Of a DNA stretch of 64,000 bases, positions 1 to 38,755 are shown one piece after another (within the stretch, counting starts at the first letter, position 1; every line of letters starts with the position of its first letter). The DNA is from an uncultured Mollicutes bacterium (GTDB taxonomy: Bacteria > Bacillota_I > Bacilli_A > RF39 > UBA660), in contig CAMFOH010000001.1 in assembly GCA_945969495.1 (NCBI GenBank), positions 4,424-68,423 on the forward strand, written 5' to 3'. Position numbers and translations under genes: made by a program. The notes beneath the pieces were generated by a model. It was not told where the DNA came from and did not search any database. It worked only from the letters and a program-made list of their open reading frames with translations.

Positions 1-186
1 AAAACTTTAAATTGTAGTGGTTATGCAAGAATAGATTTTTTCTATGATGAAGAAAATGAAAAAATATATATTAATGAAATAAATACCATACCAGGTTTTA
101 CTTCTATTAGTATGTATCCTAAACTAATTGAAAGTATTGGTATAACTTATACTGATTTAATAACTATTTTAATTAATAATGCATAA
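1..186 (+). CDS. ddl: D-alanine--D-alanine ligase, C-terminal fragment (gene starts upstream of window)
   Basis: In-frame translation from position 1 gives ...[55 protein letters not shown], the typical Ddl C-terminus; stop TAA at 184-186. Confidence 0.6.
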
Positions 187-234
187 GTTCACAATAAGTG
201 AGCTTTTTTGTTATAATAGGAATGGTGAATAATT

Positions 235-927
235 ATGAAATCCGATGTTTATAAAATCAATAATGCTGTGGAAAAGATTAAAAGTGGTAAGAATACTTTA
301 TTTTTAGATCAAAGAGAATATAAATTATTAACATCAAAATTAAAAAAGCATGAATATAATGTTTACTATCCATATAAAGATAGTGAAAAAGTAATGTTAT
401 ACACAGAAAAAATACCGATTGTTAAGTTATTTAAGATTAATACTGCAGAAAAGATAAGACATCAAGATATACTTGGAAGTTTATTTGCACTTAACATAGA
501 TTCTTCATTTTTTGGAGACATAGTTTTATACAAAGATGATTATTATGTGTATATAGAAAATAATTTAGCGAACTATATAAAAGATAATTTAAATATGATA
601 GGTAATAAAAAGATAGTTTTAGAAGAAGTTAGTTTGGATGTTTTAAAGGATTATGAAAGAAAGTACGAAGAAAAAGAAATGATTGTATCAAGCCTTAGGA
701 TAGATGGTATAGTATCATCAATAATTAATTCTTCTAGAAGTAAGGCACTAGAGAAAATAAAAAACAAAGAAGTAATAGTTAATTATGAAGTTATGAGTAA
801 AAATTCATACTTACTTAAAGAAAATGATATATTTAGCATAAGAAGATATGGTAAGTATAAGTTTGTTGGAGTAGTAAAAAGTACAAAGAAAGATAATTAC
901 ATAGTTAAATATTTGAAATATTTATAA
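235..927 (+). CDS. S4-domain RNA-binding protein (YlmH-like)
   Basis: 230-aa ORF; C-terminal S4-like segment SLRIDGIVSSIINSSRSKALEKIKNKEVIVNYEV; position after ddl. Confidence 0.5.
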   Translation: MKSDVYKINNAVEKIKSGKNTLFLDQREYKLLTSKLKKHEYNVYYPYKDSEKVMLYTEKIPIVKLFKINTAEKIRHQDILGSLFALNIDSSFFGDIVLYKDDYYVYIENNLANYIKDNLNMIGNKKIVLEEVSLDVLKDYERKYEEKEMIVSSLRIDGIVSSIINSSRSKALEKIKNKEVIVNYEVMSKNSYLLKENDIFSIRRYGKYKFVGVVKSTKKDNYIVKYLKYL

Positions 928-947
928 TATTTATAATATTTATAATA
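918..947. repeat. Three tandem copies of a 9-bp AT unit (atttataat) overlapping the stop of the upstream ORF
   Basis: Direct reading: aaatatttataatatttataatatttataatat. Confidence 0.6.
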
Positions 948-1054
948 TAGAATTAGAGTGATAAAAAAAGTTATGTCTAATAAATAAAGTAGGAGATAGT
1001 AAAAAAACTAGCTTTGTTTTCCACACTTTTTGAATAAGAAGGGTGGTGATAATT

Positions 1055-1144
1055 ATGAGATTTAAGTTTGAAATAAAGTTAAATACAAAATTAATTATCA
1101 TTTTAATACTTATAGTAATACTAGTTATTACATATAACGTATAA
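1055..1144 (+). CDS. Small hydrophobic peptide, 29 aa (MRFKFEIKLNTKLIIILILIVILVITYNV), copy 1
   Basis: RBS aagggtggtga 6 nt upstream of ATG; charged N-terminus + single TM; followed by hairpin/T-run terminator; exact copy repeated at 1378. Confidence 0.5.
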   Translation: MRFKFEIKLNTKLIIILILIVILVITYNV

Positions 1145-1145
1145 G

Positions 1146-1182
1146 AAAAACAAGGTTAGTTTAAAAGCTAGCCTTGTTTTCT
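1146..1182 (+). terminator. Rho-independent terminator (stem caaggttag/ctagccttg, loop tttaaaag, T-run)
   Basis: 9-bp stem with one G-U wobble followed by ttttct. Confidence 0.6.
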
Positions 1183-1377
1183 AAAAAACAATCTTTGGAA
1201 AACAACTAGTTAAAGCTGTCTCCTTCATTTATATTATACAATAACAAATATTTTTATTCAATAAAATTATAAAAATTAGAGTGATAAAAAAATTTATGTC
1301 TAATAAATAAAGTAGGAGATAGTAAAAAAACTAGCTTTGTTTTCCATTCGTCTTGAATAAGAAGGGTGGTGATAATT

Positions 1378-1467
1378 ATGAGATTTAAGTTTGAAATAAA
1401 GTTAAATACAAAATTAATTATCATTTTAATACTTATAGTAATACTAGTTATTACATATAACGTATAA
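1378..1467 (+). CDS. Small hydrophobic peptide, 29 aa, copy 2 (identical protein)
   Basis: Same RBS/ORF as copy 1; part of tandem duplication. Confidence 0.5.
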   Translation: MRFKFEIKLNTKLIIILILIVILVITYNV

Positions 1468-1468
1468 G

Positions 1469-1505
1469 AAAAACAAGGTTAGTTTAAAAGCTAGCCTTGT
1501 TTTCT
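1469..1505 (+). terminator. Rho-independent terminator (copy 2 of the hairpin at 1146-1182)
   Basis: Identical stem-loop caaggttag...ctagccttg + T-run. Confidence 0.6.
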
Positions 1506-1649
1506 AAAAAAAACAAATCTGGAAAACAACTAGTTAAAGCTGTCTCCTTCATTTATATTATACAAAAATAAAATTAATATGTAAAGAACTGTTCATCTTT
1601 TTTTGAAATATAAAATATGCTATACTATTTTATACAGGAAGTGATTTAA

Positions 1650-2270
1650 GTGAAAGTATTGTTAGTAAATGGTAGTCCAAATAAAGATGGTGCAACTAAC
1701 TTAGCTTTAGAGGAAGTAGCTAAAACTTTAAATGATAACGGAGTAGAAACAGAAATATTTTGGATTGGTAATAAAGGGGTAGCGGGGTGTATTGGATGTG
1801 GTGCATGTTTTAATACAAAAAGATGTTTTATTGATGATAAAGTAAATGAATTCATTTCAAAAGCTGAAAAAGCTGATGGATTTATCTTTGGTACGCCAGT
1901 TCATTATGCTGGGCCTACTGGATTTATAAAATCATTCATGGATAGATGTTTTTATGGTAAAGGTTATGCATTTGAGTATAAACCAGTAGCAGCAGTGGTT
2001 AGCGCAAGGCGTGGTGGATGTGCTACTGCTTTTGATGATTTAAATAAATATTTTACTATTTCCAACATGATTGTTGTTGGAAGCCAGTACTGGAATCAAA
2101 TACATGGAAATAATAAAGAAGAAGCTAAAAAAGATGAAGAAGGACTTCAAACAATGAGAACGCTTGGAAAAAATATGGCTTGGATATTAAAATGTATTGA
2201 AAAAGGTAAGGAAAATGGTGTACAATACCCAGAAAAGGAAAAAAGAATATCAACTAACTTTATAAGATAA
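1650..2270 (+). CDS. NAD(P)H-dependent FMN reductase / flavodoxin-like fold oxidoreductase
   Basis: 206 aa; N-terminal MKVLLVNGSPNKDG (flavodoxin-like NADPH-FMN reductase signature), Cys cluster CIGCGAC. Confidence 0.65.
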   Translation: MKVLLVNGSPNKDGATNLALEEVAKTLNDNGVETEIFWIGNKGVAGCIGCGACFNTKRCFIDDKVNEFISKAEKADGFIFGTPVHYAGPTGFIKSFMDRCFYGKGYAFEYKPVAAVVSARRGGCATAFDDLNKYFTISNMIVVGSQYWNQIHGNNKEEAKKDEEGLQTMRTLGKNMAWILKCIEKGKENGVQYPEKEKRISTNFIR

Positions 2271-2282
2271 GAAGGTGTAATT

Positions 2283-3389
2283 ATGAAAAAGAAAGTAGTA
2301 ATAGGAATGAGTGGTGGGGTTGATTCATCAGTTGCTGCCATAATACTTCAAAAACAGGGCTATGAAGTAATAGGCCTTTTTATGCGTAACTGGGATTCTT
2401 TTGCGGATGGTGAGTTAGAAGGAGCTCCAACTACTACTCAAGGTATATGCCCTCAAGAAGTAGATTATAATGACGCTAAAAAAGTTTGTGATAAATTAGG
2501 TATTCCTTTATATCGCAAAGATTTTATTAAAGAATACTGGGATTATGTATTTACTTATTTTTTAGATGAATTAAAAAAAGGAAGAACACCAAATCCTGAT
2601 ATAATGTGTAATAAATATATAAAGTTTGATCAGTTTGCTCGTGAAGCTGAAAAACTAGGAGCGGATTACATTGCGACTGGTCATTACTGCAGAATAAAAG
2701 ATGGACAACTATTAAGAGCGGTAGATGATAATAAAGATCAATCGTACTTTTTATCACAAGTATCAAGAAAACAATTAAAAAACGTTTTATTTCCAATTGG
2801 AGATATGATAAAACCTGATGTTAGAAAAATAGCTGAAGAGTATGGTTTAGTTACCGCAGAAAAAAAAGATTCAACTGGTATATGTTTTATTGGTGAAAGA
2901 AATTTCTCTAACTTTTTAAAAAATTATTTACCAAATATGCCTGGTGATGTAATAGATATTAAAACAAATAAAAAAGTTGGAGAACATATTGGTCTTATGC
3001 ATTATACAATAGGGCAAAGGCGTGGACTTGATATCGGCGGTACAAAAGAAAGAATGTTTGTTGTTGGAAAAGATTTAAATAAAAACATTTTATATATTGA
3101 ATCTGGTAATGATGAATATTTAATAACTACTTCTTGTTTAGTTGATCAAATAAATTGGACTTATGATAAGAAAATTAATAAATGTACTGCTAAATTTAGA
3201 TATAGACAAAAAGATGTAGATGTAAAGTTAGAATGGTTAGATAATGGTGAAATATTAGTTAGGTATCCACAAGGAGTAAAAGCTGTAACTCCAGGACAAG
3301 CCTGTGTATTTTATGATGGTGAAGTATGTTTAGGTGGTGGAATAATAAAAGAAGTAAGGAAAAATAATGAGAAGTTATGGTATTTATAA
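2283..3389 (+). CDS. mnmA: tRNA-specific 2-thiouridylase MnmA
   Basis: 368 aa; PP-loop SGGVDSS at N-terminus, conserved MnmA length and C-terminal domain. Confidence 0.85.
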   Translation: MKKKVVIGMSGGVDSSVAAIILQKQGYEVIGLFMRNWDSFADGELEGAPTTTQGICPQEVDYNDAKKVCDKLGIPLYRKDFIKEYWDYVFTYFLDELKKGRTPNPDIMCNKYIKFDQFAREAEKLGADYIATGHYCRIKDGQLLRAVDDNKDQSYFLSQVSRKQLKNVLFPIGDMIKPDVRKIAEEYGLVTAEKKDSTGICFIGERNFSNFLKNYLPNMPGDVIDIKTNKKVGEHIGLMHYTIGQRRGLDIGGTKERMFVVGKDLNKNILYIESGNDEYLITTSCLVDQINWTYDKKINKCTAKFRYRQKDVDVKLEWLDNGEILVRYPQGVKAVTPGQACVFYDGEVCLGGGIIKEVRKNNEKLWYL

Positions 3390-3403
3390 AAAGAAATTCT
3401 TTT

Positions 3404-4492
3404 TTATGTAGAATTTCTTTTTTCTTTTATTATTTTTAAATTATTTAGTAACCTTTCATTGTTAGGTTCCATATCTATGGCTTTGTTGCACCATTTTAGT
3501 GATTCATTTATATTACCTAAATAAAATTCACTTATTGAAAGAAGATCATACACCGTATAATCCCAACTAAAAGGTTCATTTATATATGTCTTTTCATGGC
3601 TTTTAATTTCTAAAGCTTGTAAACAATATTTTTTAACTTCCTTAAAATTGTTAAGCTCATATTCAAGTAATGCTCTTTCTATGTAAGAATCTCTTAAGTA
3701 TGGAGCTTCTTTTACAGCTTTATCAAGCCACATTTTTGCCTCATCATATCTTTTTAAGTATTTATAACATCTTGCGATAAATCTCATTGAGGCACATCTT
3801 TCGTCTTTCCATGCTGCACTTGGCAAAGAAAGATGTTTTATTAACGTATCGATTGCATCATTCCACTTGCCATGAAACATGTATTCTCTACCTAGATAAT
3901 GCATGTTTCTATCATTTTCTGGGTCTTCTTTTACTGAAAGTTCTAAAAGTGGTAAATAGCTACTTCTAGATTTACTATCATCTGGAAAGTGATCTACCGT
4001 AATTTCATCAGTTGTTAACCAAACTTCTTTATCACCAGTATATTCTAATACTTCATGTACTGGATGAGTCCATTTAAAACCATGTCTTGCGTGTATTTTT
4101 TCAATGTAGAAATTAACTTTAGGGTTTCCATTTTCATCATGAGACCAATTATAATTATATCTTAAGTGATTAACACCATCTTTCCATATTTTATCCAAAG
4201 TTTTTCTCCATCCAGGATTTAGTACCTCATCTAAATCGATACATACACATATATCAAAATCTTCGGGTACTAATTTTAATGATTCATTTCTAGCAACATC
4301 AAATCTCCATGGTTTTATCTCCTTTTTTACAACGTTAACTCCTAATTTATTTAAAAGTGAGACCGTATTATCGCAAGAACCCGTATCAAGAACATAAATT
4401 TGATCAGCCTCTTTGACAGAATTAAACCATCTTTTAACAAACTTTTCCTCATTTTTACTAATTGCATAAACTGCTATTTTATTTTTTTTCAA
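3404..4492 (-). CDS. Family-2 glycosyltransferase with C-terminal TPR repeats, downstream partner of the collagen-like gene
   Basis: 362 aa; N-terminal GT-A fold signature (VYAISKNEEKFV...LDTGSCDNT, DxD-like IDLDE), C-terminal TPR-like helical repeats; stop codon 2 nt from the BclA-like gene on the same strand. Confidence 0.7.
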   Translation of the reverse strand: MKKNKIAVYAISKNEEKFVKRWFNSVKEADQIYVLDTGSCDNTVSLLNKLGVNVVKKEIKPWRFDVARNESLKLVPEDFDICVCIDLDEVLNPGWRKTLDKIWKDGVNHLRYNYNWSHDENGNPKVNFYIEKIHARHGFKWTHPVHEVLEYTGDKEVWLTTDEITVDHFPDDSKSRSSYLPLLELSVKEDPENDRNMHYLGREYMFHGKWNDAIDTLIKHLSLPSAAWKDERCASMRFIARCYKYLKRYDEAKMWLDKAVKEAPYLRDSYIERALLEYELNNFKEVKKYCLQALEIKSHEKTYINEPFSWDYTVYDLLSISEFYLGNINESLKWCNKAIDMEPNNERLLNNLKIIKEKRNST

Positions 4493-4494
4493 GT

Positions 4495-5706
4495 TTATGC
4501 TCCTTGTCTTCCTTTATATTCAATTAGTATTGTAACTATTGGATTAGTAAAGTATGAACCTGATGATATGTCTTTTAAATTAGGCGTATTTAAGTATATG
4601 TTAGTTTTACCAAGGTTTACTAATTCATATGCGTTTGCAATACTTTCTACTGCTATTAATCCTTCACCAACTATTTGCTTTGCTTCATCATAGTATGACC
4701 ACTGGCTAGCACCTATAAAGATGTTATCAGTTCCAACTTGTCTAAATCCAATTGACACGAAGTCTTTTTCTGGATCAAACTCTTCTCCGTTAGGAGTTGC
4801 ATATGCAGATACAATAAAGGTAATCTTATAATAACCAGCTACGTTAAATTGTATTACTTCTTCATTAGTATCCAAAGTAATTATATCTGATATATCTAAT
4901 TCTTCTCTATCGATAGGTAGTCTTTCTCCGGCTGCAACACTAATTCCTTCTGCACTTGTTCCATCATTAAATGTTACAAGATAAGCATCCCTGTAAAGAG
5001 TTGGTCCAGTAGGTCCAACATCTCCTTTTGGTCCCATAGGTCCGGTAGGACCTTGTATGTTACCTACGTTTATCCAGTCATTTTCAGTATCTGACCATAC
5101 GTACAAATTACCATTTACTAGATAAGATTCATTAGGATTACCTGTTGGATGATCAGCTATTAAATCATCATAAGTGTTGTATGATCCTAATATTGTAACA
5201 CTAGTTCCTGCAGGCCCAGTAGGCCCAGTTGCTCCTTCTGTACCATCTTTTCCATCAAAGCCTTTTGGAATTACGAAATCCAATATATGGTTAGTTGAAC
5301 TTCCACTATCTGTAACAATAGCTCTTGTACCTGCATCGCCAGTAGTTATTGTACCTACTGATATTGTTTCTGTTTCTCCAGCTGGTCCTGTTGGCCCAGT
5401 AGGTCCAGTAGGCCCAGTTGGTCCAGTAGGTCCCGTTGCGCCGGTAGGTCCGGTTGGTCCAGTTGGTCCAGTAGGTCCGGTAGCACCTGTTGCGCCGGTA
5501 GGTCCGGTTGGCCCAGTAGCTCCTGTTAAACCAATTAATCCTTGTGGACCGGTAGGCCCAGTTGGCCCGGTTGCACCACCAGATGGACCCGTTGGCCCGG
5601 TTGGCCCTGGAATAAATCTTGGACAACAGCATTTTTTATGATGTTTCATTTCTTCTAAAGCATTTCTTAAAATACTTCCTTCATAGAAATTATTTTGATT
5701 ATTCAT
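4495..5706 (-). CDS. BclA-like collagen triple-helix repeat exosporium glycoprotein (N-terminal CCC motif, GPT repeats, C1q/TNF-like C-terminal domain)
   Basis: 403 aa; >25 consecutive G-P-T/G-A-T triplets; C-terminal domain with [16 protein letters not shown] resembling BclA ISETGFYKITVIANTA; N-terminus ...[16 protein letters not shown]. Confidence 0.8.
5370..5612 (-). repeat. Near-perfect 9-bp tandem repeats (GGTCC(A/G)GT(A/T)) encoding the G-P-T collagen tract
   Basis: ccagtaggtccggtaggcccagttggtcc... repeated; length-variable coding microsatellite. Confidence 0.8.
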
Positions 5707-5894
5707 TTTTTATCTCCTTTCACGGTATAATATGAACTATAAAAAAATACTTGTATTATGTTTGACTTGTACAATTTAAAATATTTTAAAGTAAAAATAT
5801 ACAGTTTTAAAAAATAATTAATAGATGGTAAAAATATATCAATCACTTATTTTTTATTACCATAAGATAAAGTGAAGTAATGAGGTGATGATTT

Positions 5895-6236
5895 ATGAAA
5901 GAAATAAAAATAAAGTGTATTAATAAATATAAATATCAGATTATTATATATGACTGTTATGGTAACAAAGTATTTGATGGTTTTACTGATGAAACTGGTA
6001 CATTGATTTTAGATGTGCCATATTATGGTGTTTATAAGATTTTGATATTAAGGAATAAAAATATAAAAGTAATTACTAATTTTTATGTAGATGAAAACCA
6101 GTATAACTTTTTCTATTTTAGGGTTGTTAGTATAAAAAGATACCTTCACTTAGTTACTTTTAAAATTACAGATGAATATTATAAAGGATTACCAATAAAG
6201 GAGGGAAAAATAACGTTATGGCAAAAGGACACATAA
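5895..6236 (+). CDS. Hypothetical beta-rich protein (113 aa) ending in Y-K-G-L-P-I-K-E-G-K-I-T-L motif
   Basis: ORF with RBS gaggtgatgattt ATG; motif DETGTLILDVPYYGVYKI reminiscent of prealbumin/Cna-B-type folds. Confidence 0.45.
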   Translation: MKEIKIKCINKYKYQIIIYDCYGNKVFDGFTDETGTLILDVPYYGVYKILILRNKNIKVITNFYVDENQYNFFYFRVVSIKRYLHLVTFKITDEYYKGLPIKEGKITLWQKDT

Positions 6237-6766
6237 TTCCAATAACTAATGGTAAAGGAAGTAAAGCCCTTGTTAATGGAAATTATTCGGTAACAGCGAG
6301 TGTAAATGGTTATGATAATGCAACTATCGAACCTAGCACTGAAGAAATAAGCGAAGGTGTTAATGAGTATAGCTTTACGATAGCCGCTACTGGTACTTTA
6401 ACTTTACACGTATCGGATGATGGAACTGAAATTGGAGTTCCGATAGTTGGTGCAACATTTTATAGGTGTGATGCAGAAGGTACTACTTATGGAGAAGCGG
6501 TAACTTCTGGTGATGATGGTAATGCGGTATTTAATAATGTTCCTTACGCTGATGATGGAACGGCACCAAACATATATTATAAGCAAACTGCTTCGGATGG
6601 AGAACATGGTTTCACAGATGAATTGCAGACAATTACGATGGAAACTGAAACCCATACGATTGAAATAGCAAACGAAGAAGCTCCATCAAGGAATATTAAT
6701 TTAACTGATGCTAATTATGATGGATTACCAATTGAAGACGGAAGCATAACTTTAACTTCTGAGTAA
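6218..6766 (+). CDS. Hypothetical beta-rich protein (182 aa), paralogous C-terminal motif Y-D-G-L-P-I-E-D-G-S-I-T-L
   Basis: RBS aaggaggg upstream; DDGNAVFNNVPYADDGTAPNIYY resembles Cna-B/SpaA-type domain signature D-x-N-G-x-x-x-F-x-N-L-x-Y-G. Confidence 0.5.
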   Translation: MAKGHIIPITNGKGSKALVNGNYSVTASVNGYDNATIEPSTEEISEGVNEYSFTIAATGTLTLHVSDDGTEIGVPIVGATFYRCDAEGTTYGEAVTSGDDGNAVFNNVPYADDGTAPNIYYKQTASDGEHGFTDELQTITMETETHTIEIANEEAPSRNINLTDANYDGLPIEDGSITLTSE

Positions 6767-6870
6767 ATTAAAACAAACAAGTAAATGGTTACTTGTTTGT
6801 TTTAATATGATAACTTGAATAAAATACTTAAATATGCTATTATCTAGTTGTTTATTTTAAAGGAGACAAA

Positions 6871-7719
6871 ATGAAAGAAATAGTATTAGATACGTTACTT
6901 GATGCATTAAAATTATTACCATTTTTATTTGTTGCATTTTTGATAATGGAATATATTGAACATAAATTTAATAAAAAAAGTAAAAATAAGATTTCCAAAG
7001 CAGGTAAGTTTGGTCCGATTTTTGGAAGTTTACTAGGCGCTGTTCCACAATGTGGTTTTTCTGTTATGGCAACTAACCTTTATGCAACTAGAATAATAAC
7101 CGTTGGTACGCTTATATCAATATATTTATCAACCTCGGATGAAATGCTTCCAATATTAATATCTGAGGGTACCAAAGTAAGTATCATTTTTAAAATCTTA
7201 ATAGTAAAGATAATAATAGGTATGATATGTGGTTTTGTAATAGATTTTATATTAAGAAAAAAACATAATGAGAAGGAATATGAAATAAAAGATTTTTGCT
7301 TGGAACATCATTGTGATTGTAATCATGGGATTATTAAATCATCGTTAAAACATACTTTAAATATTATTTTATTTATTATTTTAATAACGTTTTTATTAAA
7401 CGCAGGTATTCATTACCTAGGTGAAGAAAATATAGGTAAACTATTTTTAAAGGATAGTATTTTTGCTCCTTTTATATCAAGTTTGATTGGACTTATTCCT
7501 AATTGTGGTGCTAGCGTTATAATAACTGAATTATATTTAAGTGGTGTTATATCATTTGCATCATGCGTATCTGGTTTATTAACCGGAAGCGGGGTTGCTT
7601 TGCTAGTTTTATTTAAAGTAAATAAAGATAAAAAAGCTAATTTAAAGATTTTATTAACTTTATATTTAATAGGTGTTATATCAGGGGTATTGATAGAGTT
7701 TCTTAGTTTCATTTTTTAA
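6871..7719 (+). CDS. Polytopic membrane protein with internal two-fold repeat (each half has a P-x-C-G-[FA]-S motif)
   Basis: 282 aa; GAVPQCGFSVMATNLYATR... and GLIPNCGASVIITELYLSG... halves; HHCDCNHG loop between halves. Confidence 0.55.
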   Translation: MKEIVLDTLLDALKLLPFLFVAFLIMEYIEHKFNKKSKNKISKAGKFGPIFGSLLGAVPQCGFSVMATNLYATRIITVGTLISIYLSTSDEMLPILISEGTKVSIIFKILIVKIIIGMICGFVIDFILRKKHNEKEYEIKDFCLEHHCDCNHGIIKSSLKHTLNIILFIILITFLLNAGIHYLGEENIGKLFLKDSIFAPFISSLIGLIPNCGASVIITELYLSGVISFASCVSGLLTGSGVALLVLFKVNKDKKANLKILLTLYLIGVISGVLIEFLSFIF

Positions 7720-7761
7720 AAGACCTTATTTATTTAAAAGGTCTTTTTTGTTATAATTGTA

Positions 7762-9309
7762 ATGGAGATGATGAATGTGGTAAAACCTTTAGTGTTATGT
7801 ATATTAGATGGATGTGGAGTGCGAGAAGAAAGTGATGGTAATGCTTTTAAAAACGCTAATAAGCCAACTTTAGACATGTTAATGAATAAGTATCCGCACT
7901 GTTTACTTCAAGCTAGTGGACCTTATGTTGGACTTCCTGTTGGACAAATGGGAACAAGTGAAGTAGGGCACATGAACTTAGGATCGGGAAGGGTAGCATT
8001 ACAACCTTTACAAGCTATTACTAAGTCGGTAGAAGATGGTACTTTGTTTGAAAATGAAAATATTTTAGAGGTAATAAACCATGTTAAACAAAATAGTTCT
8101 AACTTACATATTATGGGGTTATTAAGTGATGGTGGGGTACACTCACACATTAATCATTTATTAGCATTACTTGATATGTGTAAGATGAATAACGTTAAAA
8201 ACGTATATATACATGCCTTTTTAGATGGTAGGGATACTTATGAAAAAAGTGCTATTAAATATTTAGACATTTTAAACGACAAGATTATAAAACTAGGAAT
8301 AGGTAAAATTGCAACGATATCCGGTAGGTATTACGCAATGGATAGGGATAACAACTTTGATAGGCTAAAGTTAGCATATGATGCATTTGTTTATGGTAAT
8401 GGACCTGTTTATAAAGATTATAAAGAATTAATTGATAAAAATTATAATGATGGTGTTTATGATGAGTTTATACGCCCTGGAATAATAAATAACGTTCCTA
8501 TTAAAGATGGTGATGGAATTATTTCTTTTAACTTTAGAAAAGATAGGATAAGAGAATTATTTACTTGCCTTAGTAATCCAAATGCATATGAATCTATGGC
8601 TAAGGAAAAAGATATGGTAATTAAACATTTTAATAATGTTAAAACATTAACCATGTTTCCTGTTACTGAAACGGTATTATCAAAGCATGCATTTGATGAT
8701 TTGGATCTAAAAAATATATTAGTTGATTATTTGCATGAAAATGGGTTAAGCCAACTTAGAATAGCAGAAACCGAAAAGTTTCCTCATGTTACTTTTTTCT
8801 TTGATGGTGGAAGAGAAGTAAAGTACGATGATATGAAAAAAATAATTATACCATCACCTAAGGTAGCAACTTATGATTTAAAACCAGAGATGAGTGTATA
8901 CGAAGTAACTGATAACTTCTTAAAAGAAGTAGAAAACTATGATGTTACAATCATGAACTTAGCTAATGGAGACATGGTTGGACATACTGGAGTTTATGAA
9001 GCTGCAAAAAAAGCGGTTGAACACATGGATAAATGTTTATCTAAAATATATGATAAGGTTATTAGTCTAGGTGGAGTTTTAATAATAATAGCTGATCATG
9101 GTAATTGTGATGTTATGTGGGATAAAGAACATAACCCAGTAACTTCTCATACTATTAATCCTGTACCATGCATTATTACAAAAGAAAATATAGAATTAAA
9201 AGATGGTAAGTTAGCTGATATAGCACCTACTATGCTTGAACTTTTAAAAATAAAAAAACCAAAAGAAATGACAGGTGAAAGTTTAATAAATAAGTCTATT
9301 AATAATTAA
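7762..9309 (+). CDS. gpmI: 2,3-bisphosphoglycerate-independent phosphoglycerate mutase
   Basis: 515 aa; N-terminal LVLCILDGCG, metalloenzyme core, typical iPGM length; true start may be the ATG at 7771. Confidence 0.85.
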   Translation: MEMMNVVKPLVLCILDGCGVREESDGNAFKNANKPTLDMLMNKYPHCLLQASGPYVGLPVGQMGTSEVGHMNLGSGRVALQPLQAITKSVEDGTLFENENILEVINHVKQNSSNLHIMGLLSDGGVHSHINHLLALLDMCKMNNVKNVYIHAFLDGRDTYEKSAIKYLDILNDKIIKLGIGKIATISGRYYAMDRDNNFDRLKLAYDAFVYGNGPVYKDYKELIDKNYNDGVYDEFIRPGIINNVPIKDGDGIISFNFRKDRIRELFTCLSNPNAYESMAKEKDMVIKHFNNVKTLTMFPVTETVLSKHAFDDLDLKNILVDYLHENGLSQLRIAETEKFPHVTFFFDGGREVKYDDMKKIIIPSPKVATYDLKPEMSVYEVTDNFLKEVENYDVTIMNLANGDMVGHTGVYEAAKKAVEHMDKCLSKIYDKVISLGGVLIIIADHGNCDVMWDKEHNPVTSHTINPVPCIITKENIELKDGKLADIAPTMLELLKIKKPKEMTGESLINKSINN

Positions 9310-9507
9310 ATCATAAAAAAATATGCATAAAATATAAAAATAGTATTTTATATGTAATATTTTGTAAAAAAAGTCGAAAAAAGTACAAAAAGACTTGCTT
9401 TTTTTTCTAAATATAGTATCATTAATATCGGAAGTACAAGTATTTTACTTCCCTTATTGCTAAGACCATGCGTACCCACTCATGGTCTTTTATATTAAAA
9501 AAGAGGA

Positions 9508-11637
9508 TTATTTCCTCTTTTTTGTTTTTTGAATATTATTTTTTAATTGTTTACTTTCACTAGTAAATTTTACAATTCTAGCTTTTTTAGATGCTTCTTT
9601 AACCTTTATCTTAAGCGATGATCCGATTGTATATATATTATTGTTACCAACTAGTTTGTTATGAACACTATCATAATGGTAATTATCATTTGGCAAATCA
9701 TTTATGCTTATTATCCCGTAAAAACCTTCTTGGGTTCTTACTTTTACCTGAGTAGAATTAATATCAATTATTACTGCGTCAAATACGTTTCCTATGTTAT
9801 TTTCCATGAATTCTGCTATTCTCATTTCTTTAGCTTCTCGTTCTGCTTTATCTGCTTCATTACTTTGTTTACTACAATGGTTAGCGACTTCTTTTAAAAA
9901 TTTATCTAATTCATTGTAATCAATGTTGTATGTTTTATTATATAAATTTAATAATCTATGTACCTGTAAATCAGCAAATCTTCTAATTGGAGACGTAAAA
10001 TGTGTATATTGTTGCAAAGCTAGTCCAAAATGCCTAAGGCTTATATTTGAATATTTAGCTTTTTTCATCGTATTGATAAGTAATAATTCAGATAACGCTT
10101 CATAAGCGTCTTCGTTTTTATTTATGCTTTCTATTATGTTTTGAATATATTTATTTGAAGTTATATTTTTACAATTTTTAAATTCAATTCCTTGTTCTTC
10201 TAATACATCTAAAAATGAATGTATTTTATCTTCGTCTGGAGCTTCGTGAATTCTATATATAAAAGGTAAGCCTCTATAATAAATGTGTTCTGCTACAGTT
10301 TGATTTGCAAGTAACATAAAATTTTCTATTATTCTTTCTCCTGCTTGTTGTGTCCTTTTTTGAAACTGGATTGACTGACCTTTTCCTTTAGCTTTTAATT
10401 CACTTTTACTAAGGTTTAAATATCCTCTTTGATTTTTTGCTTTATTTAAAATGTCAGATAATTCACTCATTATTTTAAGATCTTCATAGAATGGTTCATA
10501 TCCATTTACCATTTCATTTTCTATTAATATTTTATTTACGTCTTCATAAGTCATTTTCTTTTTAGAACATATAATACTATCATATATATCATAATCAACG
10601 ACTTTCCCATCCTTATTAATTATCATTTCACAAGTTTTTGTAAGTCTATCTACGTTTGGATGTAAAGAGCAAATTCCGTTTGATATTTTAGCAGGTAACA
10701 TAGGTAGTACTGTGTCGTTCATATAAACACTTGTTGCTCTTTGATATGCATCGTTACTAATTGCGGTTCCTTCTTTTACGTAATATGCAACATCTGCAAT
10801 ATTAACGTATAATTTATAATTTCCGTTTGGAAGTATTTCAATGCATATTGAGTCATCAATATCTTTTGTGTCTTCTCCATCAATTGTAAATACATTCTTA
10901 TCTCTAAGGTCTTTTCTGCCTTCTTTTAAAGCTTGCTTATAATCTACAAAATTAGGTATTTTTTCAAGTTCTTTTATTGCTTTTGGACTAAAATCAGATT
11001 CAAAACCATGATCATATGCTATTGTTTTCTCATCAACGTCCGGTTCATTTTTGTGACCAATTATTTTTTCAACATGACCATCGAATTGACTACTTTTAGT
11101 AGTCAATCTTACTAGTAAGATTTCACCTACACCATGTTTATCAATGCTTTTTTGATCAACTCTAATTTTTGATTTACTTTTTGAATTATACGGAATAAGC
11201 ATATTTTTTCCATTTTCAAAAACAACCTCACAGGATATTTGATTGGTTTTTCTTTTTATTATTTTATCAATTGTTCCATAAATGTTATTCTTGTTATCAA
11301 CGTAAGATTTATTAACACATACAATATCTTTTTCTAAAACACCATCGGCTTTATTTCTTGGTACAATCACCTTGCACCCATAATCATCGGTAACAATCAT
11401 ATCACCACTTAGTAAAAAATGTGCCTTGCCATGACATATTGATGGTTTGTTTTCCATTAGACAATAAGTACCATTTTTATTTTGGTATACTAACCCTTTA
11501 ACCTCTAAGTCAAATATTATTTTTTCTAAATATTCCTCTGCATCACTACTTATTTTTAATTCCCTTTTTAGTTCTTTTAGATCAATATTAGGTCTTTTTT
11601 TTAAACAACCTAATAACTGCTGTTCTAAAACTTCCAT
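9508..11637 (-). CDS. rnr: Ribonuclease R
   Basis: 709 aa; RNB catalytic domain motifs (ALQQYTHFTSPIRRFADLQVHR), N-terminal CSD and C-terminal S1 regions. Confidence 0.85.
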   Translation of the reverse strand: MEVLEQQLLGCLKKRPNIDLKELKRELKISSDAEEYLEKIIFDLEVKGLVYQNKNGTYCLMENKPSICHGKAHFLLSGDMIVTDDYGCKVIVPRNKADGVLEKDIVCVNKSYVDNKNNIYGTIDKIIKRKTNQISCEVVFENGKNMLIPYNSKSKSKIRVDQKSIDKHGVGEILLVRLTTKSSQFDGHVEKIIGHKNEPDVDEKTIAYDHGFESDFSPKAIKELEKIPNFVDYKQALKEGRKDLRDKNVFTIDGEDTKDIDDSICIEILPNGNYKLYVNIADVAYYVKEGTAISNDAYQRATSVYMNDTVLPMLPAKISNGICSLHPNVDRLTKTCEMIINKDGKVVDYDIYDSIICSKKKMTYEDVNKILIENEMVNGYEPFYEDLKIMSELSDILNKAKNQRGYLNLSKSELKAKGKGQSIQFQKRTQQAGERIIENFMLLANQTVAEHIYYRGLPFIYRIHEAPDEDKIHSFLDVLEEQGIEFKNCKNITSNKYIQNIIESINKNEDAYEALSELLLINTMKKAKYSNISLRHFGLALQQYTHFTSPIRRFADLQVHRLLNLYNKTYNIDYNELDKFLKEVANHCSKQSNEADKAEREAKEMRIAEFMENNIGNVFDAVIIDINSTQVKVRTQEGFYGIISINDLPNDNYHYDSVHNKLVGNNNIYTIGSSLKIKVKEASKKARIVKFTSESKQLKNNIQKTKKRK

Positions 11638-11903
11638 AATTCCTTTATACCTTCCTTATAATAATTATACTATAAAAAAGTATAAAGTGTTTAAAAAAAT
11701 ATCATGTTATAATTATTTTTAAAATATGCTAAAGTATTTAAATATTTAGTATTTTTATTTTAACATTTAAGCTTTTGTGTTTTGTAATATATAATATTGA
11801 CAATAAAATATAATTATTAAAAAAATATAAAAAATAAAGCGAACTCACGGATTTGTTGCGTAATTAAATTTTAATTAAAATTACCAAATAATTAAAATTT
11901 TAT

Positions 11904-12045
11904 TGACTTGTATTTGTTAATATGTTATTTTGCCTTTAGTAAATAAAGAAATATATATTATGCAAGATTAATCACTTGAATTTCTTTTAGCTTTTTAGTG
12001 TTCGTTTCTTTTTAAACTTGCTTTTCAAGCAAATTTTTTTTATTG
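11904..12045 (+). promoter_or_regulatory. Decayed duplicate of the leader/attenuator found at 16592-16773 (promoter TTGACT-N17-TATTTT, leader segment gcaagattaatcac, terminator ttgctt-ttc-aagcaa + T9), no leader start codon and no downstream gene
   Basis: About 75% identity to 16592-16790 over 140 nt; reading frame of leader lacks ATG; region runs directly into IS110 relic. Confidence 0.55.
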
Positions 12046-12109
12046 TACTAAGAAAGGTGACTAACTATTAGAAATCAATAGTTTTTGAAAAAATTAGCAA
12101 ATAATTATT

Positions 12110-12760
12110 TCAATAAAGATGGTTCAAAATCATTGCTATATTCATAATTGAATATCTAAGATAACCCAAACTATATTTTAACATCTTACCATTAAAGGAT
12201 ATGTTACTAGATTCAATAACACTAGGTTCAAGTCCAACAAAAGCTAACATTTTAGCAAGCCCCTTAAGTTTAGTAAATTTAGCATAAGAAAATTTGCCAT
12301 GAGATAAGTTTCTAATTGAATCGTAATCCTTCGTCAAAACAATGTGACTTATATTTTTATACTTTTGGAAAATGCAAAGAAAAGTTGAAGAAATATTGTT
12401 GCTAAAGAAAGGTTTTAATTCAGGAAAAGACTTGTCCAATTAATTAGTTAATAAAACATCAAATTTACTTCTTTCTTTAATTAATAATTTCCTAGTTCTA
12501 TATAGTGACTTTAATAAATAAATATTGTATAATAAATTTGAATTTAGCTTGTAAGGAATAGACATTAAATATTGAACGATGGTTAAAGCATTAGCTTTAT
12601 CAGTCTTAGTTCTACGTAAGCTTCGAGCTTTTAAAAACTGATGAATGACAAGAGGATTTATTTTCATAAAAGAATAATCTTGATTAATTAAAAACAGTTC
12701 TATTTTCAAAGAATAATGTTCAGTTGCTTCAAAAGCAATGTGGACTTTGTATTTAGACAA
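12110..12760 (-). pseudogene. IS110-family (DEDD) transposase relic: N-terminal domain fragment + Transposase_20 C-terminal fragment separated by an in-frame stop, N-terminus truncated
   Basis: HIAFEATEHY...KTDKANALTIVQYL (IS110 N-domain) and LAKMLAFVGLEPSVIESSNISFNGKMLKYSLGYLRYSI (C-terminal HhH domain); the two ORFs are in the same frame with a single stop between them; total about 215 aa vs about 350-400 for intact enzyme. Confidence 0.7.
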
Positions 12761-13066
12761 ACATAATATATCATATAAACACCTTCTAAAATAGTTTGTT
12801 TGAACTGATAAGTTTGCAACAGAGTTTCTAATTATGTAATCACGTAATTTAATAAAACATCATTAGTAAAACTAACGTGTTAACTAACTAATTAACAATA
12901 AAAATAAAAATCCGTGGTTTGAGGCACCTAGACTAGTCATAGTGGCTGTAATATAAAAATAAATCCAAAGTGCGCTTCTTATTATAATAAATAATAAGAA
13001 AATACAAATGAAAGGGGTCAATCAAAAGAGGAGTATTTTTCTTAAGATTGATTATACGAGATAGAT

Positions 13067-13938: not shown

Positions 13939-16569
13939 ATGCATCATGAAGATATAGAAAGTATTTTTAGAAAGCTAAATTCAAATCAAAAGGGATTAAG
14001 TAGCAAAGAAGCTCAAAAAAGATTATTAGAAAATGGTAAAAATATTTTGCCTAAAAAAAAGAAAGATAGTTTTATTAAAATATTTTTAAAAGGAATATTA
14101 GATCCGATAGTTTTGTTATTAGTTATTACCGTTGTTTTCTCTTTAATAGTAGGAGAAAAAACAGATGCTATTGCAATTTCATTTATTATATTAGTAGACT
14201 TAATATTGGGAGCTGTGCAAGAGTGGAAAGCTGAAAAAAATGCAGATAGCTTATCGAGCATAATAAAAGTAAAAGTTAACGTCTTGCGGGATAATAAAGA
14301 GGTAGAAATAGATTCTGAAGATTTAGTTGTTGGGGATATTATGATACTTGATTCCGGGGACAAACTAAGTGCTGATGCAAGAATCATAGAATCTCATAAC
14401 TTAACCGTTAGTGAGTCTGTTTTAACAGGAGAAAGCATAAACGTACCAAAAAAAGTATGCACGGTTAATAAGAAAGCTAGTATAAGCGAAATGAAAAATA
14501 TGCTATTTGCTGGTACCACAATAACTACTGGTAGGGCAATTGCCATCGTGACTAAAACGGGTATACAAACCGAAGTTGGTAAAATAGCTGATAAGGTAGC
14601 TAACGCAAAAGATGAGAAGTCTCCACTTACGATTAGAATGGATAAGTTTTCTAAACAAATTAGTTTATTAATAATTGTTATAGCAATAATCATAACTGTT
14701 TTATTATTTTATAAAGGAGTTCAAGGAAAAGAAATATTCTTATCGGTTATTGCACTTTCTGTTTCAGCGATGCCAGAAGGTCTTCCACTTGCACTTACCA
14801 TGGCACTTACCATTACGTCAAATAAAATGGTAAAGAAAAATTGTTTGGTAAAAAAATTAAACTCGGTTGAATCACTTGGTAGCTGTACGTATATAGCAAG
14901 TGATAAAACCGGTACTTTAACAGTTAATGAACAAACTGCTAAACGGATTGTATTACCAAATGGAAAAGCATATGATATTACTGGAATTGGTTATAATTTT
15001 GATGGTGAAATTAAGGTAAGTGATAAGAAAGATGAAGAACTAGTAAAAGAAATAGCAACTTTAGGGTACATAAATAACGAAGCGGGGCTTGAAAAAGAAG
15101 AAGATGGATACACATATTTTGGTGACTCAATAGATGTTGCTTTTAAAGCGCTTGGTAAGAAGGTTAAGGTTGACGTAAGTAGCTATGAAATACTTGGCAT
15201 GATACCTTATGAATCAGAAAATAAGTACTCAGCAGTTTTTTATAATACATGCGGGAATAATTATGCATCTGTTAAAGGATCTTTAGAAGTTGTTTTAAAT
15301 TTTTGCAAAAATACTAATGAAGAAAAGGAAAAAATAAAAAAACAAAATGAAGAATTAGCTAAAGAAGGATACCGGGTTATAGCACTTGCAAGTAGTAAAT
15401 TAGCTAATTTTAAATTAAAAGAAGACTATGATAAAAATGATATAGAAACTTTAGAGTTTAAGGGCTTAGTTGCGTTTATAGACCCAGTAAGAAAAGATGT
15501 TAAAGATTCTATAAACGAATGCGTAAAAGCTGGTATAAACGTTATTATGATTACTGGTGATCATCCTTTAACCGCGTACAAGATAGCTAAGGATTTAAAG
15601 TTGTGTAATTCCTATGATGAGGTAGCAACAGGTGCTGATGTCGAGATGATGAGCGAAAAAGGTGAAGATGAATTTGATAGATTTGTAAAATGTAAAAAAG
15701 TATTCTCAAGAGTTACGCCAATTGATAAGTTAAAAATAGTTGAATGAGGTCATAGTTAAGGTGAGGTTGGGGCGGGATGAGGGGAGGGAGGATATGTGGC
15801 TCCAGCCCTTATATGCGCTATCATAGGGATTGCATTGGGATCTGGTACTGATGGTGCAATAGAAACAGCTGATATGATAGTTCTTGATGATAGCTTTTCG
15901 TCAATTGTAAGTGGCGTTAAAGAAGGAAGAGGGGCATATAGTAACATTAGAAAAGTATCATATATGTTACTATCTTGTGGGCTTGCTGAGGTATTATTCT
16001 TTTGTTTATCAATATTCTTTGAGTTGCCTATGCCACTTGTTGCAATCCAATTATTATGGCTTAACATCGTAACGGATGGCCTTCAGGATTTTGCACTATC
16101 ATTTGAACCGACCGAAGATAAAGTAATGGAAGAAAAACCAAGAAAAACAAGTGATTCACTGTTTAATAAAGAATTACTTATAGAAGTTTTAATATCTGGA
16201 TTAACAATGGGAATCATCGTTTTTATGGTATGGAATAACCTACTTAAAAATGGCATGGATGTTAACGTTGCAAGAGGATATATAATGGCTCTTATGGTAT
16301 TTATGCAAAACATCCACGTCCTTAATTGTAGGAGTGAAAAAACGTCTGCATTTAAGATGAGTTTAAAGAAAAATTTATGGATACCAGTTGTAATAGTAGG
16401 TTCAATTATATTACAAATAATAGTTATGGAAAATGATGTTTTATCAAGTTTTTTAAAAACTAGTAGTGTGCCTTTTATAAACATGGTAGAACTTTTAGGA
16501 TTTTCACTTATCATACTACTTGTTGTTGAAATATATAAAATATTTAAAAGGAAAAAACGTTCTATTTAG
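13939..16569 (+). pseudogene. P-type (type IIA/IIB, Ca2+-type) ATPase disrupted at the hinge motif: N-terminal ORF 13939-15747 (DKTGTLT present) and C-terminal ORF 15796-16569, joined by a G-rich patch containing three stop codons and a frame change
   Basis: Compare intact paralog at 46950-49562: ...[29 protein letters not shown]; here the same stretch reads IVE*GHS*GEVGAG*GEGGYVAPALICAIIGIALGSGTD. Confidence 0.75.
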
Positions 16570-31488: not shown

Positions 31489-32907
31489 ATGAAAAATAAA
31501 GGATTATTACTAATTTTATTTTTTTCTGTTTTATTACTGATAATTTTAATATATACAAATTATTTTAACAATGAGATATATTTTAAAAATGTTAATTCAT
31601 ATGATAAAGTAGAAGTATTTAGTAATTATAAGAATAATGATAATGTGATTGCTTGTTATGGAAACAAAATTAAATGTAATAAAATAGAATATAAAGTTCA
31701 AGGAATGGTAAATACGAAAAAATTAGGAGTTTATACACTTACCTATAGGGTAAAAAAAGATAAAAGTGTAGCTACTTTTAAGAAGAAAGTTGAAGTTGTT
31801 GATACAAAATCTCCAAAGTTAACAATAAATGGTACTTTTGAAAATGTTTGTCCAAACGGAAACGTAAGTGGAGTTACTTTTGAAGCAATTGATAATTATG
31901 ATGGAAATATAACTGATAAAATCAAATATAAAATAAAAGATAATAGGATAATATATAAAGTGACTGACTCTTCTGGTAATAGTACAAAAAAGGAGTTTGA
32001 TGTAACGATTAATGATAATGAAAAACCAACCTTAATTTTAAATGGCGAAAGCACAATATATATTTCTATTGGTTCTAATTATATTGAACCTGGTTATGTT
32101 GCAATTGATAATTGCGATGGAAATATAACTGAACAAGTTAATGTAACTACAAATTTAGATACTAATAAAAAAGGAACTTATGAGATAACTTATAGTATTA
32201 AAGATGAGTTTGGTAATGAAGTGGTTGCAAAAAGAATTGTTAAAGTTTTTCCAAAAAATAACTATAAACCAGGAGAGGTTAGTGCGAAAACAATTTATCT
32301 AACTTTTGATGATGGTCCAGGAGCCCATACTGAAAGGTTACTTGATATATTAAGAAAATATGATGTAAAAGCAACTTTTTTTGTAACTGGATATAACAAT
32401 AATTACAATGAATTATTAACCAAGGAACATAATGAAGGACATACAGTTGGTCTTCATAGCTATACTCATAATTATGGATTAATATATTCTGGTATTGATT
32501 CTTATATGGAAGATCTATTAAAAATTCAAGATAAAGTTAAACAGTATACGGGTGAGGAATCAAAAATAATTAGATTTCCAGGTGGAAGTTCTAATACTAT
32601 CAGCAAAAGATATCGTATTGGAATAATGAGTGATTTAACGAAAAAAGTAGAAGAAATTGGATTTAGATATTTTGATTGGACCATTGCATCGGGAGATGCT
32701 GGTAACACCAAAGATTCTAACAAAATAGTTCAAAATGTTATAAGTGGTTTAAAAGAAAATGATGTTAATGTTGTATTAATGCATGATATAAAATCATATA
32801 CGGTTGATGCAGTTGAAAGAATTATTGAGTATGGGCTTGCTAATGGATACACTTTTGTACCACTTACAATGGAAAGTCCTATTGTTCATCAAAAAGTTAA
32901 TAACTAA
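31489..32907 (+). CDS. Secreted polysaccharide (peptidoglycan GlcNAc) deacetylase with N-terminal Ig-like/DUF5011 domains
   Basis: NodB motifs LTFDDGP, GLHSYTH, plus LMHD; signal/TM at N-terminus. Confidence 0.8.
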   Translation: MKNKGLLLILFFSVLLLIILIYTNYFNNEIYFKNVNSYDKVEVFSNYKNNDNVIACYGNKIKCNKIEYKVQGMVNTKKLGVYTLTYRVKKDKSVATFKKKVEVVDTKSPKLTINGTFENVCPNGNVSGVTFEAIDNYDGNITDKIKYKIKDNRIIYKVTDSSGNSTKKEFDVTINDNEKPTLILNGESTIYISIGSNYIEPGYVAIDNCDGNITEQVNVTTNLDTNKKGTYEITYSIKDEFGNEVVAKRIVKVFPKNNYKPGEVSAKTIYLTFDDGPGAHTERLLDILRKYDVKATFFVTGYNNNYNELLTKEHNEGHTVGLHSYTHNYGLIYSGIDSYMEDLLKIQDKVKQYTGEESKIIRFPGGSSNTISKRYRIGIMSDLTKKVEEIGFRYFDWTIASGDAGNTKDSNKIVQNVISGLKENDVNVVLMHDIKSYTVDAVERIIEYGLANGYTFVPLTMESPIVHQKVNN

Positions 32908-32994
32908 AACGCAATTATTTGCGTTTTTTTAGTGGCTTAATAATTATTCCTCTTTAAACTTGTTTCATTAAATAATAATGAAAAGGGGGAAATT

Positions 32995-33954
32995 ATGGAA
33001 AAGAGAGGTATTGATATTTCTCATCACCAAGGTGATATAGATTTTGATAAATTAAAAGGAAATATAGATTTTGCTATGGTGAGAACTAGTTATGGAGCAT
33101 TTTATGAGGATAAAAAATATAAGCAGAATATAGCAGGTTTAGAAAGGATAGGAGTGCCTTATGGGCTATATCACTTTTCTTATGCAAAAAGTGTAGATTC
33201 AGCAAAAAAAGAAGCTGATGGTTTTATAAATATCATAAAAAAATATAATCCTACTTATCCGGTCGTAATAGATATAGAATCTTCTAGTAGAACTTCTAAT
33301 TTAAGACAAGATACATTAGTAGATATAGCAGATACAATTTGTAAGAAAATTGAAGATGCAGGATATTATGTAATGATATATGCTAACTTAGATTATTTAA
33401 ATAATAAATTAAATGATAGTAAGCTTGATAGATATGATAAATGGTTAGCTGAATGGAAAGGTAAACCTAGCTATAATAAACCATTTGGTATATGGCAGTA
33501 TTCTTCTAAAGGAAGCATTCCTGGTATAAATGGTAATGTGGATTTAAACGTTTCATACAAAGATTATCCGTCAATAATAAAAAGTAATAAATTAAACAAT
33601 AATGATAATCCTGTTATTTTAGATAAAGAAAATATTATTTCTGAAATTAATTATGTAGTAAAAAAAGGAGATAATTTAAGTAAAATAGCTAGCAAGTATG
33701 GAACTACATATCAGGCTTTAGCTAGTTATAATAACATAACAAATCCAAATAAGATATATATTGGGCAAATAATAAGAGTGCCTAATTCGTCTAGTGGTAT
33801 AAAACCATCTACTTATGTTGTAAAAAAGAATGATACTTTGATTGACATAGCTAAAAAATATGGAATTGACTGGAAAGAATTGTATAATAAGAATAAAGAT
33901 GTAATTGGAAAAAATCCTAATCTAATAAAGCCTGGACAAGTATTAGAAATATAA
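32995..33954 (+). CDS. GH25 muramidase (lysozyme) with two C-terminal LysM domains
   Basis: MEKRGIDISHHQGDIDF (GH25 active-site start), two LysM repeats YVVKKGDNLSKIA... and YVVKKNDTLIDIA.... Confidence 0.85.
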   Translation: MEKRGIDISHHQGDIDFDKLKGNIDFAMVRTSYGAFYEDKKYKQNIAGLERIGVPYGLYHFSYAKSVDSAKKEADGFINIIKKYNPTYPVVIDIESSSRTSNLRQDTLVDIADTICKKIEDAGYYVMIYANLDYLNNKLNDSKLDRYDKWLAEWKGKPSYNKPFGIWQYSSKGSIPGINGNVDLNVSYKDYPSIIKSNKLNNNDNPVILDKENIISEINYVVKKGDNLSKIASKYGTTYQALASYNNITNPNKIYIGQIIRVPNSSSGIKPSTYVVKKNDTLIDIAKKYGIDWKELYNKNKDVIGKNPNLIKPGQVLEI

Positions 33955-34592: not shown

Positions 34593-34749
34593 TAAAAGGT
34601 AAAGTGTAAACTTTATCTTTTATTTTTTGTTGTAAAATAAAGCTAATTTTACATTTAATATTTTAATTTTATAAATATTGATAAAAATATTGTTTACATT
34701 TTTAAAAATGTGGTATTATATTTTTGTAAGATAAAGGAAGGAGTAAAAA

Positions 34750-35926: not shown

Positions 35927-35949
35927 GATATCATAAATATAATTAATAG

Positions 35950-38750: not shown

Positions 38751-38755
38751 AGGAG

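Follow-up and report, generated by a model that had tools for sequence, protein, structure and literature searches.

The 64,000-nucleotide (nt) stretch of DNA analysed here, which we call the window, belongs to contig CAMFOH010000001.1 of an uncultured RF39 bacterium. It has a GC content of 27% and carries two adjoining minus-strand genes, one for a collagen-like protein (CLP; 4495..5706, 403 amino acids (aa), stop codon at 4495-4497) and one for a glycosyltransferase (GT; 3404..4492, 362 aa). The CLP gene is supported by the open reading frame (ORF) list, by the sequence itself, by a Pfam Collagen match (E 1e-11) and by a wider search that returned 881 homologous proteins, the few named ones of which are called 'hypothetical protein'; it is the only gene of its type in the window. 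A preliminary reading of the same DNA, hereafter the first-pass annotation, had proposed a BclA-like collagen glycoprotein of the exosporium paired with a GT, and both the ORF and the short N-terminus ending in a Cys triplet that it described were borne out by the ORF list and the sequence. A plus-strand ORF across the repeats (5174-5641, PVGPVG...) was rejected as a gene and represents an antisense mirror of the collagen repeats.

CLP begins with a hydrophilic N-terminal domain (aa 1-33, 5608..5706; all coordinates in this paragraph refer to the minus strand) whose Cys triplet (C26-C28, 5623-5631) lies right ahead of the collagen start, and continues into the main collagen-like run (CLR1, aa 34-112, 5371..5607), a tract of variable length with 26 Gly-X-Y triplets, mostly GPT and GAT, a one-residue irregularity (GGAT) and 22 Thr at the Y position. 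This is followed by a small three-stranded beta module (module A, aa 113-148, 5263..5370), a collagen run of 7 triplets (CLR2, aa 149-169, 5200..5262), a small alpha/beta module (module B, aa 170-218, 5053..5199, with the pattern SVTILGSY...LYVWS...W.NVG), a further collagen run of 6 triplets (CLR3, aa 219-236, 4999..5052) and a C-terminal head (aa 237-403 with an approximate start, 4498..4998), an all-beta domain with a TNF/C1q-like jelly roll that we presume to be a trimerisation knob. The three runs together hold 39 Gly-X-Y triplets; the count for the whole protein is 19 GPT and 5 GAT plus the irregular GGAT, and the earlier figure of more than 25 perfect GPT/GAT triplets was therefore slightly high, with 24-25 being present.

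An AlphaFold2 monomer model of aa 111-403, built on a 52-sequence alignment, has a mean predicted local distance difference test (pLDDT) score of 87 with 190 residues above 90, and consists of three folded units, modules A and B (each ~90) and the head (mostly >90), connected by low-confidence Gly-X-Y linkers such as CLR2. The first-pass annotation had placed one short collagen run inside a C-terminal domain spanning aa 130-403; there are in fact two such runs, which divide module A, module B and the head from one another, and the head starts only at about aa 237. That parse was wrong because two modules resembling those of phage tail fibres had been overlooked. Hidden Markov models of module A, module B and the head, run across 259 homologues, returned collagen-B-collagen-head as the commonest layout (57 proteins) and the arrangement found in the window, collagen-A-collagen-B-collagen-head, as another common one (23 proteins), with modules A and B occurring in up to three copies each and in varying order (B in 0-3 copies). 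Throughout the family the N-termini are short, hydrophilic and Cys-rich, and a Cys cluster at the helix start recurs.

A structure check of the proposed C1q/TNF-like C-terminal domain had been set beforehand as a test of that proposal, and the head models as a jelly roll. Foldseek comparison with the PDB assigned it to the TNF/C1q jelly-roll class, the best match being 9h38, the tip-fibril head of F-BclA from Bacillus thuringiensis (E 4e-8, template modelling (TM) score 0.81 on the target), and the second the BclA head of Bacillus anthracis (2r6q, E 4.5e-7, TM 0.76); ExsFA, an exosporium protein, ranked lower, as did EDA and C1q-like proteins. The searches by sequence had a different outcome. 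Pfam BclA_C (PF18573) scored 14.7 bits against CLP, below its gathering score of 38 and over aa 250-303 only, phmmer with CLP returned collagen matches only, and a 29-sequence profile of the head had no match among PDB sequences. Alignment of the head with that of BclA by hhalign, for which the BclA query was partly approximate, gave a probability of 8% and covered only the GYYKITF/GFYKITV region. The BclA hallmark motif noted earlier is present, and it is the sole stretch of CLP that aligns to BclA. As for an exosporium leader, the N-terminus had no NCBIfam match at E <= 0.1 and its sequence contains no Pro-rich LxGPTLPPIPP-like motif. Membership of the BclA family, as originally proposed, was thus not confirmed by sequence. 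Since phmmer, profile and hhalign all failed, the tie between CLP and BclA is one of fold, and by sequence the head is to be regarded as a separate family of its own, distinct from BclA_C.

Among 1.8 billion representative sequences, this head family accounts for 190 clusters (50% identity), and the head is C-terminal in every case. A search of public assemblies for an exact copy of CLP gave no match. By scanning one genome per species with a 7-sequence head alignment, we obtained 75 loci encoding it, nearly all of them in gut metagenome genomes with names such as 'Bacilli bacterium', 'Tenericutes' or 'Mycoplasma sp. CAG:611'; the set also includes 'Clostridium sp. CAG:1219/465/302/762/1193' and a few Clostridia in which the head is ~40% identical. 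The families CAG-611 and CAG-1000 belong to the GTDB order RF39 (PMC8035907). The hosts are therefore almost exclusively known from gut metagenomes and look RF39-like. Four loci (L037, L049, L056, L063) lie in bins labelled Bacteroidales or Sphaerochaetaceae; these are most likely mis-binned Bacilli contigs, because they share 48-55% identity with the RF39-like set.

The adjoining GT combines an N-terminal GT-A fold domain of family GT2 (~4121-4462, minus strand) bearing a DXD motif (D86-L87-D88, 4229-4237) with C-terminal tetratricopeptide repeats (TPRs, ~3437-3955), and no signal peptide was seen in its sequence. Its TTG start codon lies 2 nt past the CLP stop codon and its AGGAG box is located within the 3' end of the CLP gene, so that the GT is probably translationally coupled to CLP. 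The same-strand GT2-TPR gene reported earlier was thus recovered in the ORF list, the sequence and Pfam. In 26-29 of the 75 loci the gene that directly follows CLP on its downstream side encodes a GT of this kind (57-71% identity), and the remaining flanks of these loci are not conserved; CLP and GT thus keep together while their surroundings change.

A comparable pair is known from Clostridioides difficile, where SgtA (358 aa; GT-A domain aa 1-260, four TPRs aa 262-358) is encoded directly upstream of bclA3 and, in a Mn2+-dependent reaction, modifies Thr and also Ser of GPT-repeat peptides with beta-O-GlcNAc, using UDP-GlcNAc as the donor (PMC7157674). In both organisms a gene for a GPT-rich collagen-like protein adjoins one for a GT-A plus TPR enzyme of about 360 aa, and the GT and SgtA share their domain order (GT-A plus 4 TPRs) and nearly their length (362 versus 358 aa). 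The first-pass annotation had drawn this parallel; its adjacency holds, whereas the gene order is reversed, the GT lying downstream of its partner here. The GT family comprises at least 8000 proteins, the best 120 of which include no SgtA-type name, and apart from the TPRs no solved structure homologous to the GT was found by sequence.

Upstream of CLP, a ribosome-binding site (AAAGGAG, 5714-5720, minus strand) is preceded by a putative mother-cell promoter with a sigma-K-type -10 box (CATATTATA, 5726..5734, minus strand) 28 nt upstream of the ATG. To place this element in context, we aligned on the start codon the upstream regions of 46 non-redundant family members with a clear ribosome-binding site. 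The family box, CATAnnnTA and usually then T, ends ~10-15 nt ahead of the ribosome-binding site and occurs at -22 to -34 in 27 of the 46 members, compared with 27 of 401 (7%) other ORFs of the same loci (odds ratio 19.7, p 1.6e-16). Of these 27 members, 13 have a C at a distance of 17 nt on the upstream side of the box, and 8 have AC at a spacing of 16-18 nt (11% expected). The Bacillus subtilis sigma-K consensus is AC-N16-17-CATAnnnTA and that of sigma-E CATACAnT. Judged by sequence, sigma-K appears to fit the family box best and sigma-E less well, while the sigma-G spacing would suit some members only; we take the box as evidence for late mother-cell transcription rather than proof of it. 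Three ORFs of at least 80 aa in the 64 kb have a box so placed: CLP, the divergent orf113 described below and one probable chance case. Scanning for sigma-70 promoters and terminators gave neither enrichment nor useful sites, and an Rfam scan of 1-13000 gave no matches.

The window further encodes a complete germinant-receptor operon (gerAA/gerAC/gerAB, 54856-58586, minus strand) and a SpoIID-domain gene (spoIID, 44704-46047, plus strand), and the source organism is therefore a spore former. This agrees with a previous study in which spore formation was predicted from gene content for the uncultured RF39 (PMC10868615). A spore-coat gene with a CotF domain lies directly upstream of the CLP gene in five loci (L040, L012, L047, L048, L057). 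Within CLP itself, neither the hydrophobic core of a signal peptide nor a transmembrane segment, an LPXTG motif or a wall anchor was seen. A vegetative cell-surface adhesin of the streptococcal Scl type could account for the weak NCBIfam matches to SclB, SclA and Lcl, which arise through the collagen region. However, these scores are far under their cut-offs (58.8 versus 325 bits; 46.8 versus 500 bits), such an adhesin would be expected to carry the export and anchoring signals that CLP lacks, and both the promoter and the gene context indicate sporulation; we consider this identity the least credible of those discussed here and barely worth entertaining.

Based on these features, we propose that CLP probably forms trimeric collagen-like fibres on the spore surface and is made together with an SgtA-like GT by a low-GC, spore-forming, RF39-like gut bacterium. 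The original idea of a BclA-like fibre thus stands at the levels of fold, gene context and promoter, and falls at those of BclA sequence membership and domain parse; the exosporium is one possible location, since the Cys-rich N-terminus would also allow an attachment like that of L-BclA. Both genes would be transcribed as one unit late in sporulation by a mother-cell sigma factor, with sigma-K being the best fit, and CLP would remain in the mother-cell cytoplasm. Synthesis in the mother cell is in keeping with the lack of a signal peptide, with the sigma-K-type box and with the sporulation genes that the window carries. The C1q/TNF-like head is predicted to start trimerisation, upon which the Gly-X-Y runs would zip into a triple helix interrupted by the two globular modules. 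The GT would then O-glycosylate Thr, and possibly Ser, in the way that SgtA modifies BclA3; the most plausible sites are the 22 Y-position Thr of the GPT/GAT tract. Finally, attachment may occur through the N-terminal Cys cluster, probably via disulfides, either at the outermost spore layer or at an appendage, leaving the head of the fibre facing outward.

Fibre length and composition would be altered among strains by recombination within and between the collagen runs, which could also add or drop modules. Among alleles whose N-terminus and head are at least 96-99% identical, a 364-aa form has 13 triplets fewer in the main run than the 403-aa CLP, and a 367-aa form has the same 13-triplet deletion plus one additional triplet in CLR3. 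A sister cluster lacking module B contains proteins of 324, 339 and 354 aa, differing by 5-triplet steps; each step equals 45 bp and agrees with the 45-bp period of the DNA. A 246-aa form is missing both modules, and whole modules too are presumably gained or lost by recombination between collagen runs. Several length and module variants were seen again on independent contigs. The predicted length hypervariability is therefore supported by the lengths of near-identical alleles (403, 367 and 364 aa; 324, 339 and 354 aa). Its stated basis in near-identical 9-bp repeats was overstated, as self-match of the tract is only 73% at the 9-bp period and 81-85% at the higher-order periods of 45 and 54 bp.

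The collagen runs and both small modules also have counterparts in phages. They match many PHROG tail-fibre families (for example phrog_3904, E 6e-27, aa 120-236), module B shares 42-63% identity with parts of annotated tail fibres from diverse phages, and the fold matches in BFVD are tail fibres and viral collagen-like proteins. Hosts of the module-matching phages include Eggerthella, Bifidobacterium, Enterobacter, Pseudomonas and Methanobacteriales. Collagen-containing tail fibres such as those of PHROG 3904 and 15437 and of Eggerthella phage LE2-3 resemble CLP in having A/B modules between Gly-X-Y runs, and the CLP family and phage tail fibres exchange small modules. The GT likewise has relatives in jumbo phages (37-41% identity) and matches phrog_13126 (E 5e-116). 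These similarities would be explained if CLP were the tail fibre of a phage or prophage, or a tailocin fibre, and the GT a phage-borne accessory gene. However, the CLP head had no match among 50,697 phage records, the CLP flanks consist of housekeeping genes (mnmA, a flavodoxin-like gene, gpmI and RNase R), the 75 loci show no recurring phage structural genes as neighbours, CotF genes adjoin some of these loci and the sigma-K-type box is conserved. The CLP context is thus chromosomal and linked to sporulation, and we rejected a prophage on genomic context and on the absence of the head from phage records, a phage, prophage or tailocin fibre being highly improbable.

Two phage sequences also bear on the distribution of the GT and the modules. 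Actinomycetia phage DSL-LC01 (OQ999401.1) encodes a full-length GT2-TPR homologue (101193-102227, 41% identity) and, ~23 kb away, collagen-like proteins with module B at 4 places (~125425-125592, 61% identity). On the small 'Bacteriophage sp.' contig MT838491.1, which encodes a GT with 50% identity, no collagen-like gene was found beside it.

Where on the spore surface the CLP fibre would be attached can be considered in the light of recent work on endospore appendages (ENAs). In Bacillus, L-BclA and a candidate ruffle protein of S-ENA are both leaderless, and the N-terminus of each is Cys-rich and contains a CC motif; disulfide coupling through this motif has been proposed, for L-BclA to L-ENA, whereas F-BclA is coupled to F-ENA by a docking peptide (PMC12357932; bioRxiv 10.1101/2023.10.23.563578). 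Because CLP likewise lacks the leader and has a Cys cluster, both a nap-like layer and an appendage tip are possible sites. CLP could therefore be the tip fibril ('ruffle') of an endospore appendage instead of part of the exosporium nap, coupled by its Cys cluster or by a docking peptide. Its head has its best structural match in the F-BclA tip-fibril head, and its leaderless CCC N-terminus recalls those of L-BclA and the candidate S-ENA ruffle protein. Nevertheless, the CC motif by itself is weak evidence for ENA coupling, since Cys clusters are equally suited to cross-linking into a Cys-rich coat or exosporium layer, and the F-ENA hook pattern was not seen in the CLP N-terminus. Moreover, Pfam gave no match to an Ena-type subunit (DUF3992 or DUF4183) among the neighbours in the window, nor does a gene for one recur in the 75 loci. 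We regard this placement as unlikely, though as deserving some weight.

Two small genes divergent from CLP are relevant to the same question. The first, orf113 (5895-6236, plus strand), is preceded by a box of the CATAnnnTA type (CATAAGATA, 5861-5869), and the second, orf182 (6218-6766, plus strand), overlaps it; both are possible CLP partners, although their membership in the system is conjectural. The pair occurs near CLP genes in 11-12 of the 75 loci. None of the 1302 homologues of orf182 has a Pfam match, and the few named ones are called 'hypothetical protein'. Its model (pLDDT 92) consists of two CnaB/prealbumin-like, that is pilin-like, Ig domains and most resembles, among known structures, the TIE protein of B. 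anthracis, two pilins (BcpA and GBS52) and a CnaB2 domain (TM 0.80). Neither a signal peptide nor a sortase motif was seen in orf113 or orf182, and both proteins end in the common motif Y.GLPI..G.ITL. The shared promoter box and the pilin-like fold of orf182, which has no signal peptide, speak for an appendage, and may be extended to a spore appendage of a new type, with orf113 and orf182 forming the shaft and CLP acting as its Cys-coupled tip or anchor. The phage-fibre modules and the gain and loss of modules among near-identical alleles would on this proposal mean that spore and phage fibres draw on a common pool of recombining modules. In such an appendage Y.GLPI..G.ITL could serve as an orphan strand motif mediating strand exchange between orf113 and orf182 subunits. 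We consider this extended proposal rather doubtful, and continue to favour a glycosylated fibre of the spore surface without a commitment to an appendage.

Several observations weigh against that favoured interpretation. The -10 box is short and lies in AT-rich DNA, and alone it cannot separate sigma-K from sigma-E; 19 of the 46 family members are without a box at that position. If the collagen Thr were the conserved substrate, GT adjacency might be expected to track Thr content, but the median proportion of Thr at the Y position is 0.33 both in homologues with an adjacent GT and in those lacking one (p 0.53). The test is a weak one, since a distant locus of the same genome could supply the GT. 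In some GT-linked homologues Thr is nearly absent from the Y position, and the collagen Thr may be neither the sole nor the conserved target. The likeness between the GT and SgtA is one of domain layout and size, and any orthology of the two is conjectural. CLP falls outside BclA_C by sequence and lacks the Bacillus exosporium leader, and the differences in repeat number come from metagenome assemblies, which can collapse repeats. The host lineage, furthermore, is uncultured, and the case as it stands is drawn from sequence, model and context.

Compared with the BclA of Bacillus anthracis and Bacillus cereus (PF18573; PDB 1WCK, 2R6Q), CLP shares the short N-terminus, the Thr-rich GPT repeats, the jelly-roll head, a strain-variable repeat length, the absence of a signal peptide and a linked glycosylation enzyme. 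It differs in having no significant sequence similarity, in carrying a Cys cluster in place of the leader that docks to ExsFA/BxpB, in the two globular modules and two collagen runs that it has in addition between stalk and head, and in its host, which belongs to the uncultured gut Bacilli. Like L-BclA it is leaderless with a Cys-rich N-terminus, and its head is closest to that of F-BclA (PDB 9H38); unlike these proteins, it has no Ena subunit gene nearby and no F-ENA docking motif, and its stalk is far shorter than the 701 residues of F-BclA. The basic design is thus known from BclA, BclA3-SgtA, L-BclA and F-BclA, and CLP does not represent a new kind of system. What is new is the separate head family, the beads-on-a-string architecture with phage-fibre modules, the Cys-cluster N-terminus and the RF39-like host range.

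The design of a collagen stalk, a C1q head and a dedicated GT accordingly extends to a separate sequence family. RF39-like Bacilli are common in human and animal guts and have never been cultured, and their sporulation is a genome-based prediction only. CLP, which is conserved and probably abundant and glycosylated, could together with its GT and promoter offer a handle for antibodies, lectins and metaproteomic markers to detect or enrich their spores. CLP is also a candidate determinant of adhesion and transmission, and its variation in repeats and modules may be useful as a strain-typing marker.

Some further genes recur at the loci or lie elsewhere in the window. A DUF11-domain protein divergently adjoins the Clostridia-type CLP in 4 loci (L062, L068, L069, L072), and a 630-aa Ig-containing protein recurs in ~12 loci. 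In the window, a plus-strand region (34053-39877) looks like a SipW-dependent fibre locus in the style of TasA or camelysin. Its products include five small exported proteins, paralogues of one another whose N-termini (MKKQN..VGYALFSETITINGTA) are nearly identical, together with a signal peptidase I of the archaeal/SipW type (37168-38157) and a protein with DUF5305. Judging from the translations by eye, one P-type cation ATPase (13939-16569, plus strand) appears split into ORFs of 602 and 257 aa, a likely sign of a frameshift or pseudogene, and a second P-type ATPase (46950-49562) is intact. Finally, the region 31489-33954 (plus strand) encodes a polysaccharide deacetylase with surface Ig-like domains and, after it, a GH25 lysozyme that has two LysM domains; a role of these enzymes in cortex or wall remodelling is possible.

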